Made by a program: the position numbers and the translations under genes. From a virus, in UHGV virus genome UHGV-0361364: a stretch of 12,261 bases of DNA; one strand, written 5' to 3'. This document shows positions 3,806 through 12,261 of the stretch, piece by piece; within the stretch, counting starts at the first letter, position 1, and the number at the start of each line of letters is the position of its first letter. The notes under the pieces were generated by a model. The model saw nothing but the letters and a program-made list of their open reading frames with translations, was not told the DNA's origin and ran no database searches.

Positions 3806-4102
3806 TCAGTCATTACTGATAGCGCCATAGCGTGAGCGGTAATTACGCAGGCGCGGGTCGATATATTCAGGGAAGTGGGTATATGTGGCTTTGCGGAATG
3901 GTCGGATTGATGTCTGGTAAATTCGCTCTCGTTCTTCTTTCTCTGCAAGCCATATACAGTGGCGAAATTCCTTTTCCTCTTTCGATTCCTGCGGTAGAGA
4001 CATTATTCGATCGTAGTTTTTTCTGAATTTATCCAGCACTTCCGATACGGAATTGCCGGAACAGCGGCGTGGGTCATCCGCACCATACAGAGGCGCTGGC
4101 AT
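3806..4102 (-). CDS. Hypothetical phage protein, 98 aa
   Basis: ATG at 4102 preceded by AAGGA at about 7 nt. Tightly packed between the SSB-like gene and the small ORF in the same operon orientation. Confidence 0.6.
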
Positions 4103-4125: not shown

Positions 4126-4509
4126 TTAGAAGGGAATTGAATCGTCGTATTCAGGATGATTTTGATGATTGCTACTTTGCTGCTGTTGGCTGTTTCCTGA
4201 AGTTGCAAATCCAATCTTTGCATTCAGTAATTCAAGAGTGATTGATTGACCATTTTGCCCCTGATAAACATCAACCCTGATGTTTTCTCCGGTAATTTCT
4301 ACAATGCCACCTTCAACAAGAACACTACGGTAGTAATCCGCTTGCGCTCCCGGCTTGGCAAATACAACGGCGCTGTAGTTTGTCCATTCTTTCTTTTTTG
4401 TCTGGCGATCGTAATACTGAACGCCAGCACGGATGTTGAATCCGATATTTTCCCCGGCCTGAAACTCTCTTGCGGGCTTGTTTAGTCTTACAGTAATCGA
4501 ATGTGCCAT
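4126..4509 (-). CDS. Phage single-stranded DNA-binding protein-like (divergent OB-fold with canonical SSB C-terminal tip)
   Basis: 127 aa starting at the ATG at 4509, which overlaps the Erf TAA by 1 nt. C-terminus is a Gln-rich linker ending PEYDDSIPF, matching the acidic DDDIPF-type tip of bacterial SSB. The N-terminal 100 aa have an OB-fold-like beta pattern but low identity to host SSB. Confidence 0.65.
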   Translation of the reverse strand: MAHSITVRLNKPAREFQAGENIGFNIRAGVQYYDRQTKKKEWTNYSAVVFAKPGAQADYYRSVLVEGGIVEITGENIRVDVYQGQNGQSITLELLNAKIGFATSGNSQQQQSSNHQNHPEYDDSIPF

Positions 4510-5114
4510 TAAGCAGCAGCTCCTTCTAATTCGTCTCGTCTGATGTTGTAAACGTCCTGCGCTTTGTGCTGCTCCGGTGTGCCTTCGAGCATCTTCCACG
4601 CTTTGGCGAACGCCTGTTTAAGCTCTTCCACGGTGTTTTTCTGCAATGCTGCGTCAGTGAATGCTTTTAGAACCTGTTCAGGTGTAGGTGATGGTTTTGA
4701 TTGCTTTGCTGCTGCGTTCTGCTGATGTTTATGCTCGTCGGTATCTGCATCTTTCGCATCATCAATGCCGAACAAACCATTGAGGCAATACTTGCGTGCA
4801 TAAGAGCTTGTGGCTCCCGTAACTTGTGCAGAATCCATTCCTTTCTTGCTTTCTTCCTCTCGTGCAAGAGCGGTTGCCGTATGACTGTTTTCGCCATCGG
4901 TAATAGTTGCCGTGGCTTTCACATAATACCGATCACCAATCAACACAACTTCATCGCTGATTGATAAAAACAGGCCATTCAGTAACGGCTTAACGCCTTC
5001 AAGAATGTCTTCGCAGCTTCTGTATTTATATTTACCGAATGAGTTGTACTGATTCTTTGGCGCGTTCAGATTCTCCTGAATAGCTGCCAGTCTTGCGTAA
5101 AATTCTTTGCTCAT
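4509..5114 (-). CDS. erf: Erf-family single-strand annealing recombinase (P22 Erf-like)
   Basis: MSKEFYARLAAIQENLNAPKNQYNSFGKYKYRSCEDILEGVKP...DRYYVKATATITDGENSH matches the recalled P22 Erf N-terminal domain closely. Start taken as the first in-frame ATG at 5114; the ORF-track extension to 5144 begins with TTG. Confidence 0.85.
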   Translation of the reverse strand: MSKEFYARLAAIQENLNAPKNQYNSFGKYKYRSCEDILEGVKPLLNGLFLSISDEVVLIGDRYYVKATATITDGENSHTATALAREEESKKGMDSAQVTGATSSYARKYCLNGLFGIDDAKDADTDEHKHQQNAAAKQSKPSPTPEQVLKAFTDAALQKNTVEELKQAFAKAWKMLEGTPEQHKAQDVYNIRRDELEGAAA

Positions 5115-5215
5115 ATGATTGTTCTCAGAATGGACATGGCCCAAGGAAATAACGCTGATTTAATACTTCGACTCGGGACAAATTAAGGCATACCCGCATT
5201 CCTTCGCGGTCGCCA

Positions 5216-5374
5216 TTATGGCGATACCAGAGAGCTTTCTGTGTGTACATGCGTCTCTGTAACTTGCTCTCCTTCACTGTGGTTGCAAGTGACATGAATA
5301 TCTCCTTCGTTACCGATTAATTCTTTCATCTGACGAATGAATTCTTCGTCTGACCAGTTATCCGTAAAACTCAT
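5216..5374 (-). CDS. Small protein at the kil position, 52 aa (Kil-like by position only)
   Basis: ATG at 5374 overlaps the cIII stop (ATGA). It occupies the position where lambda and P22 carry kil, immediately downstream of cIII. No sequence-level family assignment is possible from memory. Confidence 0.45.
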   Translation of the reverse strand: MSFTDNWSDEEFIRQMKELIGNEGDIHVTCNHSEGEQVTETHVHTESSLVSP

Positions 5375-5541
5375 GGACGGCCTTGTTGTTTCAAAATATC
5401 CCAAAGCTTTTCGAGCAAACTTTTCATTCTTGGTTGTTTAAAGTCTGCTCCGGTTAAAATATTTTTTCGTGAATGCTGCACCGATAAAATTGGGTTGAAA
5501 GGGCGAACCGATGCCGCCCCTGCAATAGCGAACTGTTGCAT
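5371..5541 (-). CDS. cIII: CIII-like regulator (FtsH inhibitor that stabilises CII)
   Basis: 56-aa product MQQFAIAGAASVRPF...KSLLEKLWDILKQQGRP parallels lambda CIII (MQYAIAGW...ESLLERITRKLRDGWKRLIDILNQPG) in N-terminus and the central amphipathic helix. ATG at 5541 preceded by strong SD AAGGAG. Confidence 0.7.
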   Translation of the reverse strand: MQQFAIAGAASVRPFNPILSVQHSRKNILTGADFKQPRMKSLLEKLWDILKQQGRP

Positions 5542-5749: not shown

Positions 5750-5776
5750 CAAAAATAAAGGCCGACTATGCGGCCT
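5750..5776 (-). terminator. Intrinsic terminator-like hairpin (minus strand) directly after the 207-aa gene
   Basis: Stem GGCCG (5760-5764) / CGGCC (5771-5775) with the TAG stop of ORF 5766-6389 in the loop, followed on the minus strand by UUUAUUUUU. Confidence 0.5.
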
Positions 5777-6389
5777 CGGAAGGAAGTCCAATCATCTTAT
5801 TCAAATCTTCTACCCGTAAAGCAGGAAGTGCTGTACTTGCTTTATCTGCTTCTTTTGGTAGCAATTCTTTGCTTTCAGGCCAAACTTCAATAAGTCGCTT
5901 AACTGTTGTTACTGAGTTCAAAGCAGCCCATACATTTGATTCGATATCCTTTTTCAAGGCTTCAAGGTTTTGTTGCAATGCGCAGATTTCATCAAACCTT
6001 TTTGTTATTTCGTGTTCTGCGTCAAACATGCATTTATCTTTGGTCGGAGTAGGGAGCAATATATCTTCGCCGTTGCCGTCTTTCCCATATGAATGCCATC
6101 CAACCCTTCTGCCAGATACAGTCAGATAAATTGAAGTAGAACGAACATCGTATGAATAAAATGAACATCCCATCTTTTCAAGTTCTTCACTTACAGCTAC
6201 CAACTTGGATGATAACTGATCCACTTCCTCAGTTTTCTTTTTACCGCCAAACGCAATAACTCTGGCGTCAAGTGCAAGCTGGTTCTTTAACTTTGTTACT
6301 TCTTCAAGTTCAGTGAAAACCCCAGACTTAATTAAAGCGTTACGAGCGATTTCCTCTTTCATTCTCGTAGTTAAGCGGATTGATGACAT
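5766..6389 (-). CDS. Hypothetical protein, 207 aa, predicted largely helical/coiled-coil; candidate accessory (moron) gene
   Basis: ATG at 6389 preceded by SD GAGAGGAA; the ORF-track start at 6404 is TTG. No family recognised. Lies between ral and cIII and is bracketed by terminator-like hairpins at 6405-6435 and 5750-5776. Confidence 0.65.
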   Translation of the reverse strand: MSSIRLTTRMKEEIARNALIKSGVFTELEEVTKLKNQLALDARVIAFGGKKKTEEVDQLSSKLVAVSEELEKMGCSFYSYDVRSTSIYLTVSGRRVGWHSYGKDGNGEDILLPTPTKDKCMFDAEHEITKRFDEICALQQNLEALKKDIESNVWAALNSVTTVKRLIEVWPESKELLPKEADKASTALPALRVEDLNKMIGLPSEAA

Positions 6390-6404
6390 ATTAATTCCTC
6401 TCAA

Positions 6405-7790: not shown

Positions 7791-8441
7791 TTAAGGAAGG
7801 TTTGCTAGCTTGGCATCAACGACAACGCCAATGATTTTACAGTTCCCATTGATTTCAATCATTGGGTATTGTGGATTGAGTGGTTTCAGGAATTTTCTAC
7901 CGGCATCAATAACTAACTTTTTGAATGTCGCCTCGTTTTCTCCTTCAAGTTTGGCGACTACCAACTTTCCATTACGTGGTTCGACTTCTGGGTCGACGAG
8001 AATAATCATCCCCTCAGGAATACTCAGTCCTGCCGGGGCAGTCATTGAATCGCCTTTAACGTCGAGCCAAAAAGAGTCTTCAGAACAATCTACCGTTGTG
8101 TCGTACCAGTTATCTATTGCACGCCTATGATATGGCTCTACAGCTTCCATCCAACATCCTGCGCTTACCCAACTAATTAGAGGATACGAACCTCTTGGAT
8201 CATGCCTGCTGTGATAGGCAATGTTTGAAAGACTATCCTCTCCTTTCAACAGGTAATCAGGGGAGCACTGCAAAGCCTTGGCTAAGGCCAATAGGTTTTC
8301 GCCATTGGGCTCAGTTTCAGATCGCTCCCATTGGGAAATAGCAACATTAGACACGCCAACCATCTTGCCAAGGGCAGCCTGCCTAATCTTGAGTTCTTTT
8401 CTGCGAGCGCGAATACGCTCACCCATCAGTTGTGTATTCAT
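7791..8441 (-). CDS. c2: P22 C2-type prophage repressor (HTH DNA-binding domain plus LexA-like S24 autopeptidase domain)
   Basis: 216-aa product is near-identical over its length to my recollection of phage P22 C2 (MNTQLMGERIRARRK...QAALGKMVGVSNVAISQWERSE HTH; GDSM serine motif; C-terminal VVVDAKLANLP). The ATG at 8441 abuts OR3, which suggests a near-leaderless PRM transcript. Confidence 0.95.
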   Translation of the reverse strand: MNTQLMGERIRARRKELKIRQAALGKMVGVSNVAISQWERSETEPNGENLLALAKALQCSPDYLLKGEDSLSNIAYHSRHDPRGSYPLISWVSAGCWMEAVEPYHRRAIDNWYDTTVDCSEDSFWLDVKGDSMTAPAGLSIPEGMIILVDPEVEPRNGKLVVAKLEGENEATFKKLVIDAGRKFLKPLNPQYPMIEINGNCKIIGVVVDAKLANLP

Positions 8442-9151: not shown

Positions 9152-9313
9152 ATGACAAAACGTCGTAAGAAATACCAGGAAAAAGAAGAGATTCGACACC
9201 CTGATTCACCTGAGGGATTAGTGGTAGCCGCAGCAAATAACAGGGCGTTCGCAGAGCGCCTTGTTGGTGTTTACAGACTAGCCAAAGCAGGAGTGAAACA
9301 TGGGCGTCGTTAA
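9152..9313 (+). CDS. Small basic hypothetical protein, 53 aa, between cII and the replication gene (below ORF-track cut-off)
   Basis: ATG at 9152 with SD AGGAG (9142-9146). Hand translation gives [53 protein letters not shown] then TAA at 9311-9313. Overlaps the start of the O-like gene by 14 nt. Confidence 0.4.
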   Translation: MTKRRKKYQEKEEIRHPDSPEGLVVAAANNRAFAERLVGVYRLAKAGVKHGRR

Positions 9314-10121
9314 GTTAGCTGATTACAGGCCTCAACTGGAGGTCGTGGAGCATCGCGTGGCAGATACCGAAGATGGTTTCATGCGCGTTGCTAACGAGAT
9401 TACCGACAGTCTGCTGATGGCTGATTTAACCGTCCGGCAGTTGAAGGTGATGCTCGCTATCATGCGCAAGACATACGGATTCAATAAGCCGATGGATCGA
9501 CTCACAAACACGCAGATAGCAGCCATGACAGGTATTCATCACACTCATGTTTGCGCTGCCAAGCGCCAGCTTATTGAGCGTAAATTCCTCATTGCTGATG
9601 GCGTGAAAATCGGAGTGAACAAGGTGGTTTCTCAGTGGATTAGCCAGGACAGCTTAACATTAGCTAAAACAGCTAATAAAACATTAGCCAAGTCGGCTAA
9701 TGGGTATAAGCCAAGTCAGCTAAACACAAAAGACAATATACAAAAGACAATAAATACAAATACCCCCTTACCCCCTAACGGGGGCGGCGATGGGCAGGTT
9801 AAACCTGAACGTCGCAAGGCAGAACGAATCGACTACGAATCCTTCCTGAACGCCTACAACACCGAAGTCGGTGACAGACTGCCACACGCTGTTGCGGTCA
9901 ACGAGAAACGCAAACGCCGCCTGAAGAAAATCATCCCACAACTGAAAACGCCAAACGTGGACGGTTTCAGAGCGTATGTCAGGGCGTTTGTGCATCAGGC
10001 CAAGCCGTTTTACTTCGGAGACAACGACACTGGCTGGACGGCAGATTTTGATTACCTGCTGAGGGAAGATTCGTTAACGGGAGTACGGGAAGGGAAGTTT
10101 GCAGACAGGGGGATTGCATGA
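9300..10121 (+). CDS. O: Replication initiator protein, lambda O / P22 gp18 family
   Basis: N-terminal region ([15 protein letters not shown]...[32 protein letters not shown]) parallels lambda O (VADLDDGYARLSN...LTKRQFKVLLAILRKTYGWNKPMDRITDSQLS). Contains the iteron origin internally. The stop overlaps the helicase start (ATGA). Confidence 0.9.
9640..9765. repeat. ori: Replication origin inside the O-like gene: four 17-18 bp iterons with internal dyad symmetry plus an AT-rich tract
   Basis: TTAGCCAGGACAGCTTAA (9640-9657), TTAGCTAAAACAGCTAA (9660-9676), TTAGCCAAGTCGGCTAA (9684-9700), TAAGCCAAGTCAGCTAA (9707-9723), about 20-24 bp apart, then an A-rich stretch 9724-9765 (ACACAAAAGACAATATACAAAAGACAATAAATACAAATA). 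Same architecture as ori-lambda. Confidence 0.8.
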
Positions 10122-11494
10122 GACAGGATATCGAAGCGAGCGTTATCGGTGGCCTGCTGATTGGTGGATTAACTCCAACCGCCAGTGACGTTCTTGCAAC
10201 GCTGGAGCCGGAAGCGTTTTCAATTCCGCTCTACCGGAAAGCCTTCGAGGTTATCCGCAAGCAGGCGCGAAACAGAAACCTAATCGACGCGCTGATGGTT
10301 GCCGAGGCGTGCGGAGAGGAGCATTTCACGTCAATCCTGATGACCAGCAAAAACTGCCCGAGCGCCGCAAACCTGAAGGGATATGCCGGAATGGTCGCGG
10401 ATAACTATCACCGCCGTCTGGTGCTGGAAATCATGGATGAAATGCGTGAACCAATTCAGAGCGGAACCATCGATACATCGAGTCAGGCGATGGACGAGCT
10501 TGTAAAGCGTCTTTCAGCCATCAGAAAGCCCCGTGACGAGGTTAAACCTGTACGGTTAGGGGAAATCATCACTGACTACACTGACACGCTTGACAGGCGT
10601 CTGAGGAACGGAGAAGAGTCAGATACCCTGAAGACCGGAATCGAAGAACTTGATGTCATCACCGGAGGGATGAACGCGGAAGACCTGGTGATTATCGCCG
10701 CTCGTCCTGGTATGGGGAAAACCGAGCTGGCGCTGAAGATTGCCGAAGGCGTTGCAAGCCGCGTTATCCCTGGTTCTGACGTTCGGCGCGGAGTGTTGAT
10801 TTTCTCGATGGAAATGAGCGCATTGCAGATTGCAGAGCGAAGCATCGCCAACGCCGGGAGGATGTCGGTTAGCGTACTGCGAAATCCTGCATCGATGGAT
10901 GACGAGGGCTGGGCACGTGTTGCTAAAGGCATGAGTCAGCTTGCAGATTTGGATGTATGGGTAGTCGATGCCTCGCGGTTATCGGTCGAAGAAATTCGCT
11001 CAATCGCAGAACGGCACAAACAGGAAAATCCAAACCTGTCACTCATCATGGCAGATTATCTTGGCCTGATTGAGAAGCCGAAAGCAGACCGCAACGACCT
11101 CGCAATTGCTCACATCTCAGGAAGCCTGAAGGCGATGGCGAAAGACCTGAAAACACCGGTTATCTCCCTGAGTCAGCTTTCGCGCGATGTTGAGAAGCGA
11201 CCAAACAAACGCCCGACAAACGCAGATTTGCGTGATTCAGGAAGCATTGAACAGGACGCAGACTCAATCATCATGCTCTATCGGGAAGCGGTATATGACG
11301 AGAACAGTAGCGCCGCGCCATTTGCTGAAATCATCGTGACAAAAAACCGTTTTGGCTCGCTTGGTACGGTTTACCAGCGGTTCTGCAACGGACACTTTGT
11401 TGCATGTGACCAGGATGAAGCCAGACAGATTTGCACAGCATCAAATGCACCTGCTGCGCGTGGCAGACGATATGCACAAGGGGCTGACGTATGA
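10118..11494 (+). CDS. Replicative DNA helicase, DnaB family (P22 gp12-like)
   Basis: 458-aa product with an N-terminal DnaB-like domain and a RecA-fold ATPase domain. Walker A reads [16 protein letters not shown], and a DnaB-type C-terminal arginine region is present. Translationally coupled to O. Confidence 0.9.
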
Positions 11495-11551: not shown

Positions 11552-12261
11552 TGCACAGAAAACCCCCAGCTAGGCTGGGGGTTCCGGAAAGCTTTCAGCT
11601 TTGAGCCAGTTATTAAAACCCCTTTTGATTTGTTAAAACACCTTGCGGTCTGGCAACTGCAAGTGTCAAACAAGAAATCAAAAGGGGGTCCCAATGGGGA
11701 ACGAAAAGAGCTTAGCGCACACCCGATGGAACTGTAAATATCACATAGTTTTTGCGCCAAAATACCGAAGACAAGTGTTCTACAGAGAGAAGCGTAGAGC
11801 AATAGGCAGTATTTTGAGAAAGCTGTGTGAGTGGAAAAGCGTACGGATTCTGGAAGCAGAGTGCTGCGCAGATCATATCCATATGCTTGTGGAAATCCCA
11901 CCCAAAATGAGCGTATCCGGCTTTATGGGATATCTGAAAGGGAAAAGCAGTCTGATGCTTTACGAGCAGTTTGGTGATTTGAAATTCAAATACAGGAACA
12001 GAGAGTTCTGGTGCAGAGGGTACTACGTCGATACGGTGGGTAAGAACACGGCGAAGATACAGGATTACATAAAGCACCAGCTTGAAGAGGATAAAATGGG
12101 AGAGCAGTTATCGATTCCCTATCCGGGCAGCCCGTTTACGGGCCGTAAGTAACGAAGTTGGATGCAAATGTCAGATCGTGTGCGCCTGTTAGGGCGCGGC
12201 TGGTAAGAGAGCCTTATAGGCGCATTTGAAAAACCTCCGGCTATGCCGGAGGATATTTATT
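11552..12261 (+). mobile_element. IS200-family insertion sequence (IS200/IS605 group, single Y1 transposase, no terminal inverted repeats); boundaries approximate, right end at or near the window edge
   Basis: Contains tnpA plus the structures recalled for IS200: left-end hairpin CCCCCAG / CTGGGGG (11563-11581); a long-range pairing CCCCTTTTG (11619-11627) with CAAAAGGGG (11679-11687) that sequesters the tnpA SD; right-end hairpin CCTCCGGC-TAT-GCCGGAGG (12234-12252) followed by ATATTTATT. Span of about 707 bp fits IS200. Confidence 0.7.
11694..12152 (+). CDS. tnpA: IS200 transposase TnpA (HUH / Y1 single-strand transposase)
   Basis: 152-aa product MGNEKSLAHTRWNCKYHIVFAPKYRRQVF...ADHIHMLVEIPPK...RGYYVDTVGKNT carries the HxH (HIH) motif and catalytic Tyr region, and closely matches recalled IS200 TnpA. 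Start at the ATG at 11694 after SD AAAGGGGG; the ORF-track upstream extension was rejected. Confidence 0.9.
   Translation: MGNEKSLAHTRWNCKYHIVFAPKYRRQVFYREKRRAIGSILRKLCEWKSVRILEAECCADHIHMLVEIPPKMSVSGFMGYLKGKSSLMLYEQFGDLKFKYRNREFWCRGYYVDTVGKNTAKIQDYIKHQLEEDKMGEQLSIPYPGSPFTGRK

Follow-up and report, generated by a model that had tools for sequence, protein, structure and literature searches.

The closest described relatives of the locus analysed here are found in lambdoid phages. In a survey of 325 such phages, published in Genome Research in 2025, SSB genes were placed inside recombination (Rec) modules, and a module type composed of "anti-RecBCD + SSB + SAP" was recognised in 27 phages (PMC12315714). 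One of the proteins concerned, HK97 gp40, was named "SSB-1b"; its fold, as predicted with AlphaFold 3, resembles that of bacterial SSB at a sequence identity of no more than 15% (<=15%), and an acidic C-terminal tip goes unmentioned in the main text of the survey (PMC12315714). The SSB of phage HK620 (HkaK) is encoded in a slot that was first annotated as abc1. This protein binds ssDNA and stimulates the annealase Sak4 in vitro as well as in vivo, an effect for which its six C-terminal residues, NDYPPF, are needed (PMC5928155). Contact between an annealase and the C-terminal tail of SSB has been established for Red-beta and RecT (PMC13490951).

The DNA examined in this study (UHGV-0361364, 12,261 nt, referred to below as the window) is a lambdoid prophage, in which a gene for a 127-aa protein lies between erf and abc2. 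The protein is 100% identical to the product of HK022 gene 40 and to the proteins of mEp213 and PhiR12, and it shares 94% identity with HK97 gp40 over 127 aa. The gene, its slot and the SSB-like fold of its product are therefore already known from the literature. What is added here is the conservation of the tip and the logic of its distribution in the family, a frameshift in the HK97 record, and a portable C-terminal domain of the annealase, which travels with IPF-tipped SSB genes.

Layout of the window and of its recombination module

The early-left operon of the window is located on the minus strand, and its recombination module has the order small ORFs - erf - ssb - abc2. The arrangement erf - ORF - abc2 is also found in HK97 and HK022. 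The features considered in this work are the following:

182-1360, integrase gene
3806..4102, minus strand, abc2, anti-RecBCD protein (Pfam PF11043, Anti-RecBCD_p2, E=2e-61; 93% identity to P22 Abc2)
4509..4126, minus strand, ssb-like gene ("SSB-1b" family), 127 aa plus stop, read from the sequence, identical to HK022 gene 40
4192..4509, minus strand, predicted SSB-type OB fold (aa 1-106)
4153..4191, minus strand, short Q/N/S-rich linker, predicted to be disordered (aa 107-119, pLDDT <50)
4129..4152, minus strand, C-terminal tip EYDDSIPF (aa 120-127, pLDDT <50), in agreement with the family consensus
4507..4511, minus strand, TAATG, where the erf stop codon overlaps the SSB start codon, read from the sequence and conserved in related loci
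4520..4526, minus strand, GAAGGAG, Shine-Dalgarno-like motif inside erf, 10 nt 5' of the SSB ATG, read from the sequence
5114..4509, minus strand, erf, Erf-family single-strand annealing protein, 201 aa (Pfam PF04404 ERF)
4686..5102, minus strand, annealing core of Erf (aa 5-143, delimited by the Pfam ERF match; 90% identity to the P22 Erf core)
4512..4676, minus strand, Erf C-terminal domain (aa 147-201), portable, predicted three-helix bundle (AlphaFold2 pLDDT 91.6)
5125-5295 and 5216-5380, minus strand, two small ORFs upstream of erf, with an overlap in different frames, at the place occupied in P22 by arf (phrog_1723 and phrog_2123)
7791-8441, CI-type repressor gene
9300-11494, replication genes (O-like and DnaB-like), on the other arm with respect to the recombination module

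A gap of 23 nt separates the ssb-like ORF from abc2, which is followed in the operon by a DUF2737 gene and an Ead/Ea22 gene. Upstream of erf lie the two overlapping small ORFs, an Nmad5-domain gene and ral. Both small ORFs carry the PHROGs label "recombinase" (phrog_1723, phrog_2123); comparison with P22 Arf revealed essentially no similarity apart from one 7-residue match (SDEEFI), which concerned one ORF only, and they can be assigned to the recombination module by position only.

Two further genes of the window deserve mention in their own right. The Nmad5 protein (nucleotide modification associated domain 5; 212 aa; 5766-6404, minus strand), with a full-length match to PF18757 (E=1e-70), is encoded in the early-left operon, where ral flanks its gene on one side and the kil/arf-slot genes on the other. 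Directly 3' of the DnaB-type helicase gene there is a 169-aa ORF (11643-12152, plus strand) whose translation presumably resembles a TnpA transposase of the IS200/IS605 family; on this assignment the nin region would begin with an insertion sequence.

Junction between erf and the downstream gene

The stop codon of erf (TAA, 4511-4509) and the start codon of the downstream ORF (ATG, 4509-4507) have base 4509 in common on the minus strand. This one-nucleotide overlap (TAATG) had been pointed out in the first-pass annotation and is read directly from the sequence. The C-terminus was also exactly as first read: the product is MAHSITVRLNKP...SGNSQQQQSSNHQNHPEYDDSIPF, with the ending EYDDSIPF (end of the ORF product: ...NHQNHPEYDDSIPF). 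The Shine-Dalgarno-like motif that precedes the start codon has the form GAAGGAG or GAAGGGG in related E. coli loci.

The one-base overlap is kept in nearly all of about 100 (~100) related loci, including those in which the upstream gene encodes a Sak4-type or Rad52-type annealase, and the same overlap joins erf and abc1 in P22. Overlaps of this kind are routine in compact phage operons and constitute no specific sign of a functional partnership. The overlap shows that the two genes are co-transcribed, and it allows translational coupling.

Identification of the 127-aa protein as a probable diverged SSB

A Pfam scan of the 127-aa protein gave no match even at E<=10. PF00436 produced weak matches in only 6 of 43 family members (best E=0.0056), and the score obtained with TIGR00621 (16.4 bits) was below the cut-off of this model (53.95). 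The closest PDB sequence match in a single-protein query was an SSB (E=0.042). With the family profile, only marginal SSB matches were obtained among PDB sequences (E ~0.6), which means that sequence alone cannot place the protein. In the PHROG collection the protein matched phrog_44, "single strand DNA binding protein" (E=1.8e-28).

The AlphaFold2 model, built on 43 homologues, has a mean pLDDT of 84, with values above 90 in most blocks of aa 1-100. It consists of strands, one helix (aa 55-63) and further strands, followed by a disordered tail (aa 107-127, pLDDT <50). When this model was compared with the PDB using Foldseek, all 47 matches at E<=0.001 were bacterial SSB, mitochondrial SSB or PriB, and structure-based alignments gave 13-19% identity to solved SSBs. 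A profile comparison (hhalign) with the canonical SSB of Salmonella phage S9-5 yielded a probability of 80% (E=1.4e-5, 59 columns).

In this alignment Y32, W42, F50 and Y82 are paired with SSB residues W40, W54, F60 and W88, which we take to be the ssDNA-stacking aromatic residues of E. coli SSB. Within the family alignment no variation is seen at Y32 and F50, conservation of W42 reaches at least 90%, and Y or F occupies position 82 in the sequences shown. His55 matters for the E. coli SSB tetramer; hhalign aligns it with Thr43, and this residue is thus not conserved.

The first-pass annotation had described the body of the protein as only loosely SSB-like, a view borne out by the missing Pfam match, the low TIGR00621 score (16.4 versus 53.95 bits) and the 13-19% identity to solved SSBs. 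Structure prediction, which had been suggested there as a check for an OB fold, revealed one of the SSB type (AlphaFold2 and Foldseek). Clear identity to P22 Abc or Arf-type proteins had been named there as one result that would speak against an SSB. BLASTP produced no alignment to Abc1 at E<=100, on which ground we rejected homology to Abc1, and the Pfam and PHROG family scans linked the 127-aa protein to no other protein of the P22 recombination module.

The interpretation of this protein as a phage SSB is well supported by its predicted fold, remote homology, tip and genetic context. We consider it to be a highly diverged homologue of bacterial SSB, belonging to the "SSB-1b" family and acting within the erf module, and we put the probability of this reading, including the mechanism proposed below, at about three in four. 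Judging from the predicted fold and the conserved aromatic residues, the protein would be expected to bind ssDNA.

Conservation of the C-terminal tip

A profile search of 1.84 billion representatives yielded 211 clusters of the family, and the tip was surveyed in 211 members whose OB domain is complete. In 136 of them the C-terminus consists of acidic residues and then x-P-F/Y; in a further 13 of the 211 the motif is followed by a short extension, and in 56 (about a quarter) the tip is absent. Every one of the 136 tip-bearing members has P at position -2, F is found at -1 in 135 of the 136, and the consensus reads aromatic-D-D-(D/S)-I-P-F. Conservation on this scale (136/211), with a fixed P and a nearly fixed F, indicates that the tip is not a chance ending, and the 56 tip-less proteins indicate that it is not essential to the family. 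Among the enterobacterial members of the family the tip is thus a conserved trait maintained by selection, but it is not universal.

Some members (P0094, L100, L101) carry the exact tip of the enterobacterial host protein, MDFDDDIPF. The tip of the window protein, EYDDSIPF, has Ser at -4, where the host SSB has Asp. The linker that precedes the tip is Q/N/P-rich in the family and varies in length and sequence, with Q/P/N-rich insertions of up to about 90 (~90) aa.

Post-tip residues were observed in two groups of proteins. Some SSB-1b members (P0101, P0119) end in ...DDDIPFNQGGR. At locus L176 (IMGVR_UViG_2558860226_000001) and about 12 (~12) related loci, canonical prophage SSBs encoded after Sak4-type annealases bear a 15-aa extension (...MDFDDDIPFAPIGLQFNKHSIHSI); in these proteins the IPF motif thus lies inside the chain, without a free carboxylate.

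Distribution of the gene and the HK97 record

The deposited sequence of HK97 gp40 (NC_002167, ~23786-23830) contains one extra C near the 3' end, as a result of which the protein ends in DDSNPILI and not in DDSIPF. The insertion was seen by comparing the HK97 locus (L004, 3787-3830) with positions 4126-4160 of the window, and removal of the extra base restores ...DDSIPF followed by the stop codon. The extra base is due to a sequencing error or else marks a genuine frameshift in the "SSB-1b" prototype, and it may be the reason why the tip of HK97 gp40 has gone unremarked.

A separate observation concerns phage mEp234 (PV340539.1, 3367-3513), in which the match to the SSB-like protein, at 100% identity, is confined to its first 49 residues, beyond which the similarity ends. 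The pattern looks like a mosaic junction inside the ssb-like gene. The 2025 survey uses mEp234 as the prototype for another class of Rec module (PMC12315714).

The SSB-1b family is small yet widespread. Of 5426 complete E. coli genomes, 579 (~11%) carry the gene, with up to four copies each, and its RefSeq/PGAP name in the E. coli records listed is still "hypothetical protein", because curated SSB models miss SSB-1b. Its recognition in about one in nine complete genomes of this species (~11%) is consequently of value for annotation.

Annealase partners of SSB-1b

The window Erf matches Pfam PF04404 (ERF) over aa 5-143 with E=2e-44 (151.6 bits, cut-off 25) and phrog_155 with E=1.6e-57, and its overall identity to P22 Erf is 75%. 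The SSB-1b gene is located directly 3' of an annealase gene in loci of E. coli, Salmonella, Serratia, Rahnella, Yersinia and Leminorella, as well as in Vibrio phages. The preceding annealase is an Erf in the window, in Serratia and Rahnella, in the Vibrio phages and in metagenomic contigs; it has a Rad52_Rad22 core in Yersinia and is of the AAA_24/Sak4 type, with the one-base overlap, in Leminorella. In other loci SSB-1b comes directly after RecT and YqaJ genes. The Erf of Salmonella phage S9-5, with 92% identity to the window Erf in the core and 82% in the C-terminal domain, directly precedes a canonical SSB that resembles the E. coli protein and has MDFDDDIPF as its last residues.

These data bear on the proposal, made in the first-pass annotation, of a phage SSB dedicated to the Erf pathway. 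The SSB part of the proposal stands, in view of the SSB-type OB fold, the linker, the tip and the slot 3' of erf. Dedication to Erf finds no support, since the gene also follows Rad52-type, Sak4-type and RecT plus YqaJ genes and a near-identical Erf in S9-5 is paired with a canonical SSB. The variety of annealase partners, together with the S9-5 arrangement, indicates that SSB-1b is an interchangeable SSB of recombination modules and is not Erf-specific. Among the comparative arguments for an SSB function of SSB-1b, the strongest is that a canonical SSB can take up this slot behind an almost identical Erf.

A portable C-terminal domain of the annealase

The last approximately 55 (~55) residues of the window Erf (PEQVLKAFTDAA..EELKQAFAKAWKML..KAQDVYNIRRDEL) make up the C-terminal domain, for which the AlphaFold2 prediction was obtained with a shallow alignment. 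Taken alone, this domain matches positions 194-250, the C-terminal end, of phrog_1097, a Rad52-type family. It recurs on the Rad52-type annealase of Yersinia, on Sak4-type annealases of Leminorella and Erwinia, and on divergent Erfs of Rahnella and of Vibrio phages, with 31-50% identity to the window domain, and the ERF, Rad52_Rad22 and AAA_24/Sak4 cores that carry it are unrelated to one another. A homologue search of a large database with a 62-aa query covering the Erf C-terminal domain returned only 16 near-identical fragments, which held no architecture information.

Comparison of the window with P22 (27257-27420) placed a mosaic junction between HK022-type and P22-type modules within erf, at the point where the core gives way to the C-terminal domain. 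The identity is 90% for the Erf core and 93% for Abc2 versus 39% for the C-terminal domain, which indicates that the exchanged cassette comprises the C-terminal domain together with the gene that follows, ssb-1b in one module type and abc1 in the other.

To count how often the domain is accompanied by an SSB gene, loci were fetched by similarity of the annealase, not of the SSB, and unique annealase/downstream-gene pairs were scored; viral contigs were scanned for the C-terminal domain with three single-protein queries. An SSB gene was found directly after the annealase gene in 43/43 cases for Erf cores with the C-terminal domain, in 7/7 for Rad52-type cores with the domain and in 52/72 for Sak4-type cores with the domain. 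For Rad52-type cores without it, the corresponding figure was 1/6. Tip-less SSB-1b genes come after Erfs without the C-terminal domain.

A strict rule, by which the C-terminal domain would occur if and only if the SSB has a tip, was rejected because it fails both ways: in Erwinia phage EhrS_59 the domain is present but no SSB gene lies downstream, and tip-bearing SSB-1b proteins are encoded near annealases with other C-termini (L093, L291).

It is conceivable, and we advance this only tentatively, that the unit which travels (nearly always, in the loci sampled) with a gene for an x-P-F-tipped SSB, be it SSB-1b or canonical, is the C-terminal domain and not Erf itself. An equally tentative suggestion is that this domain of about 55 aa, found on ERF, Rad52_Rad22 and Sak4/AAA_24 cores, might be a dedicated docking module for the SSB tail, swapped together with the SSB as a cassette, for which P22 would possess an alternative in the form of a diverged domain plus Abc1. 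Red-beta and RecT offer the analogy that makes docking plausible. When the alignment of the C-terminal domain was compared with lambda Bet by hhalign, no similarity emerged. Such a module, if real, would be the Erf/Sak/Sak4 counterpart of the Red-beta C-terminal domain.

Proposed mechanism and alternative explanations

The following sequence of events may be envisaged. The ssb-like gene is co-transcribed, and possibly translationally coupled, with erf. RecBCD modified by Abc2 would resect DNA ends, as described in the P22 literature, and the exposed single strand would be coated by the phage SSB, a role suggested by its fold and conserved aromatic residues. The tip of the SSB would then bring the annealase onto the coated DNA and thereby stimulate annealing, by analogy with the HK620 SSB and Sak4. 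The likely docking site of the tip would be the C-terminal three-helix domain of Erf. Owing to the host-like character of the tip, partners of the host SSB could possibly also be engaged, and the tip might compete with host SSB for them, as had been suggested in the first-pass annotation.

This last point leads to a different view, in which the tip acts mainly as a decoy that titrates or redirects the partners of host SSB (ExoI, RecQ, RecO, PriA, the chi subunit and others), DNA binding being secondary. The close resemblance of EYDDSIPF to the host sequence MDFDDDIPF, conserved among the members from Enterobacterales and exact in P0094, L100 and L101, is what such a competitor would display. 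However, conservation is stronger in the OB fold and its aromatic residues than in the tail, members that have no tip are retained in this genomic slot, canonical SSBs with full function replace SSB-1b in the same module, and the HK620 tip acts positively on the phage's own annealase (PMC5928155). We therefore regard a main role as decoy as quite unlikely. It is also unlikely, in our opinion, that we are dealing with a general-purpose phage SSB which serves phage DNA replication and ssDNA protection and is adjacent to erf merely through operon packing. SSBs are multifunctional proteins, SSB-1b is paired with many different annealases (at L092 and L292 none is recognisable nearby), and one-base overlaps are generic in these operons, all of which fits this explanation. 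Nevertheless, in most of the loci examined, L092 and L292 being the exceptions, the gene has an annealase gene immediately before it or is embedded in a recombination module rather than in the replication module; the O-like and DnaB-like replication genes of the window (9300-11494) are situated on the other arm, and in the 2025 survey SSB genes fall inside Rec modules (PMC12315714).

The GenBank record of HK022 describes gene 40 as a "likely analog of P22 Abc1"; on this view its product would be no SSB but an accessory factor acting with Abc2 to modulate RecBCD. The gene does occupy the exact abc1 slot between erf and abc2 and shows the same one-base overlap. The lack of sequence similarity to Abc1 (BLASTP, E<=100) and the SSB-like predicted fold nevertheless make this function very improbable, as does the occurrence of family members in loci without an Abc2 gene (Vibrio phages, Leminorella, contigs with RecT/YqaJ). 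Moreover, the "abc1" product of HK620 proved to be an SSB (PMC5928155). A phage SSB of the recombination module remains the interpretation that we prefer.

Significance and comparison with known systems

The discovery value of this analysis is modest, considering that the SSB-1b gene, its slot and its fold were known and that HK620 shows the role of a tip-bearing SSB beside an annealase. In recombineering, Erf-type annealases are little used, and a cognate tip-bearing SSB may be an obvious way to raise their activity or portability. Confirmation of docking through the C-terminal domain would extend to annealases of the Erf, Rad52 and Sak4 types what holds for Red-beta and RecT, namely docking of the annealase on the SSB tail, and would identify an interaction module that was left unanalysed in the 2025 survey.

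HK97 and HK022 gp40 belong to the same protein family as the window protein and occupy the same erf/abc2 slot; the HK97 record differs by its frameshifted end, DDSNPILI. P22 Abc1 is the positional equivalent, encoded directly after erf with a one-base overlap and followed by abc2, but its sequence is unrelated to that of the window SSB-1b. HK620 HkaK ("SSB-2") shares the slot annealase - ssb - abc2, and its NDYPPF ending resembles the host tip, whereas the protein is longer (195 aa) and its partner is Sak4, a RecA-like, ATP-dependent annealase, in place of Erf. Homology between HkaK and the 127-aa protein was rejected (hhalign probability 0.4%).

The bacterial and canonical prophage SSBs ("SSB-1", as in S9-5, ES18 and Sf6) resemble the window protein in their OB fold and ...DD(D/S)IPF tip, in the disordered linker between the two, and in the aromatic residues, which can be aligned. 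The window protein differs from them in its low identity (13-19%), its position below the Pfam and NCBIfam thresholds, its much shorter linker (~13 aa) and the Ser at -4. For the annealase, the closest parallel is lambda Red-beta, in which a small helical C-terminal domain docks the SSB tail; the C-terminal domain of Erf is likewise predicted to form a three-helix bundle.
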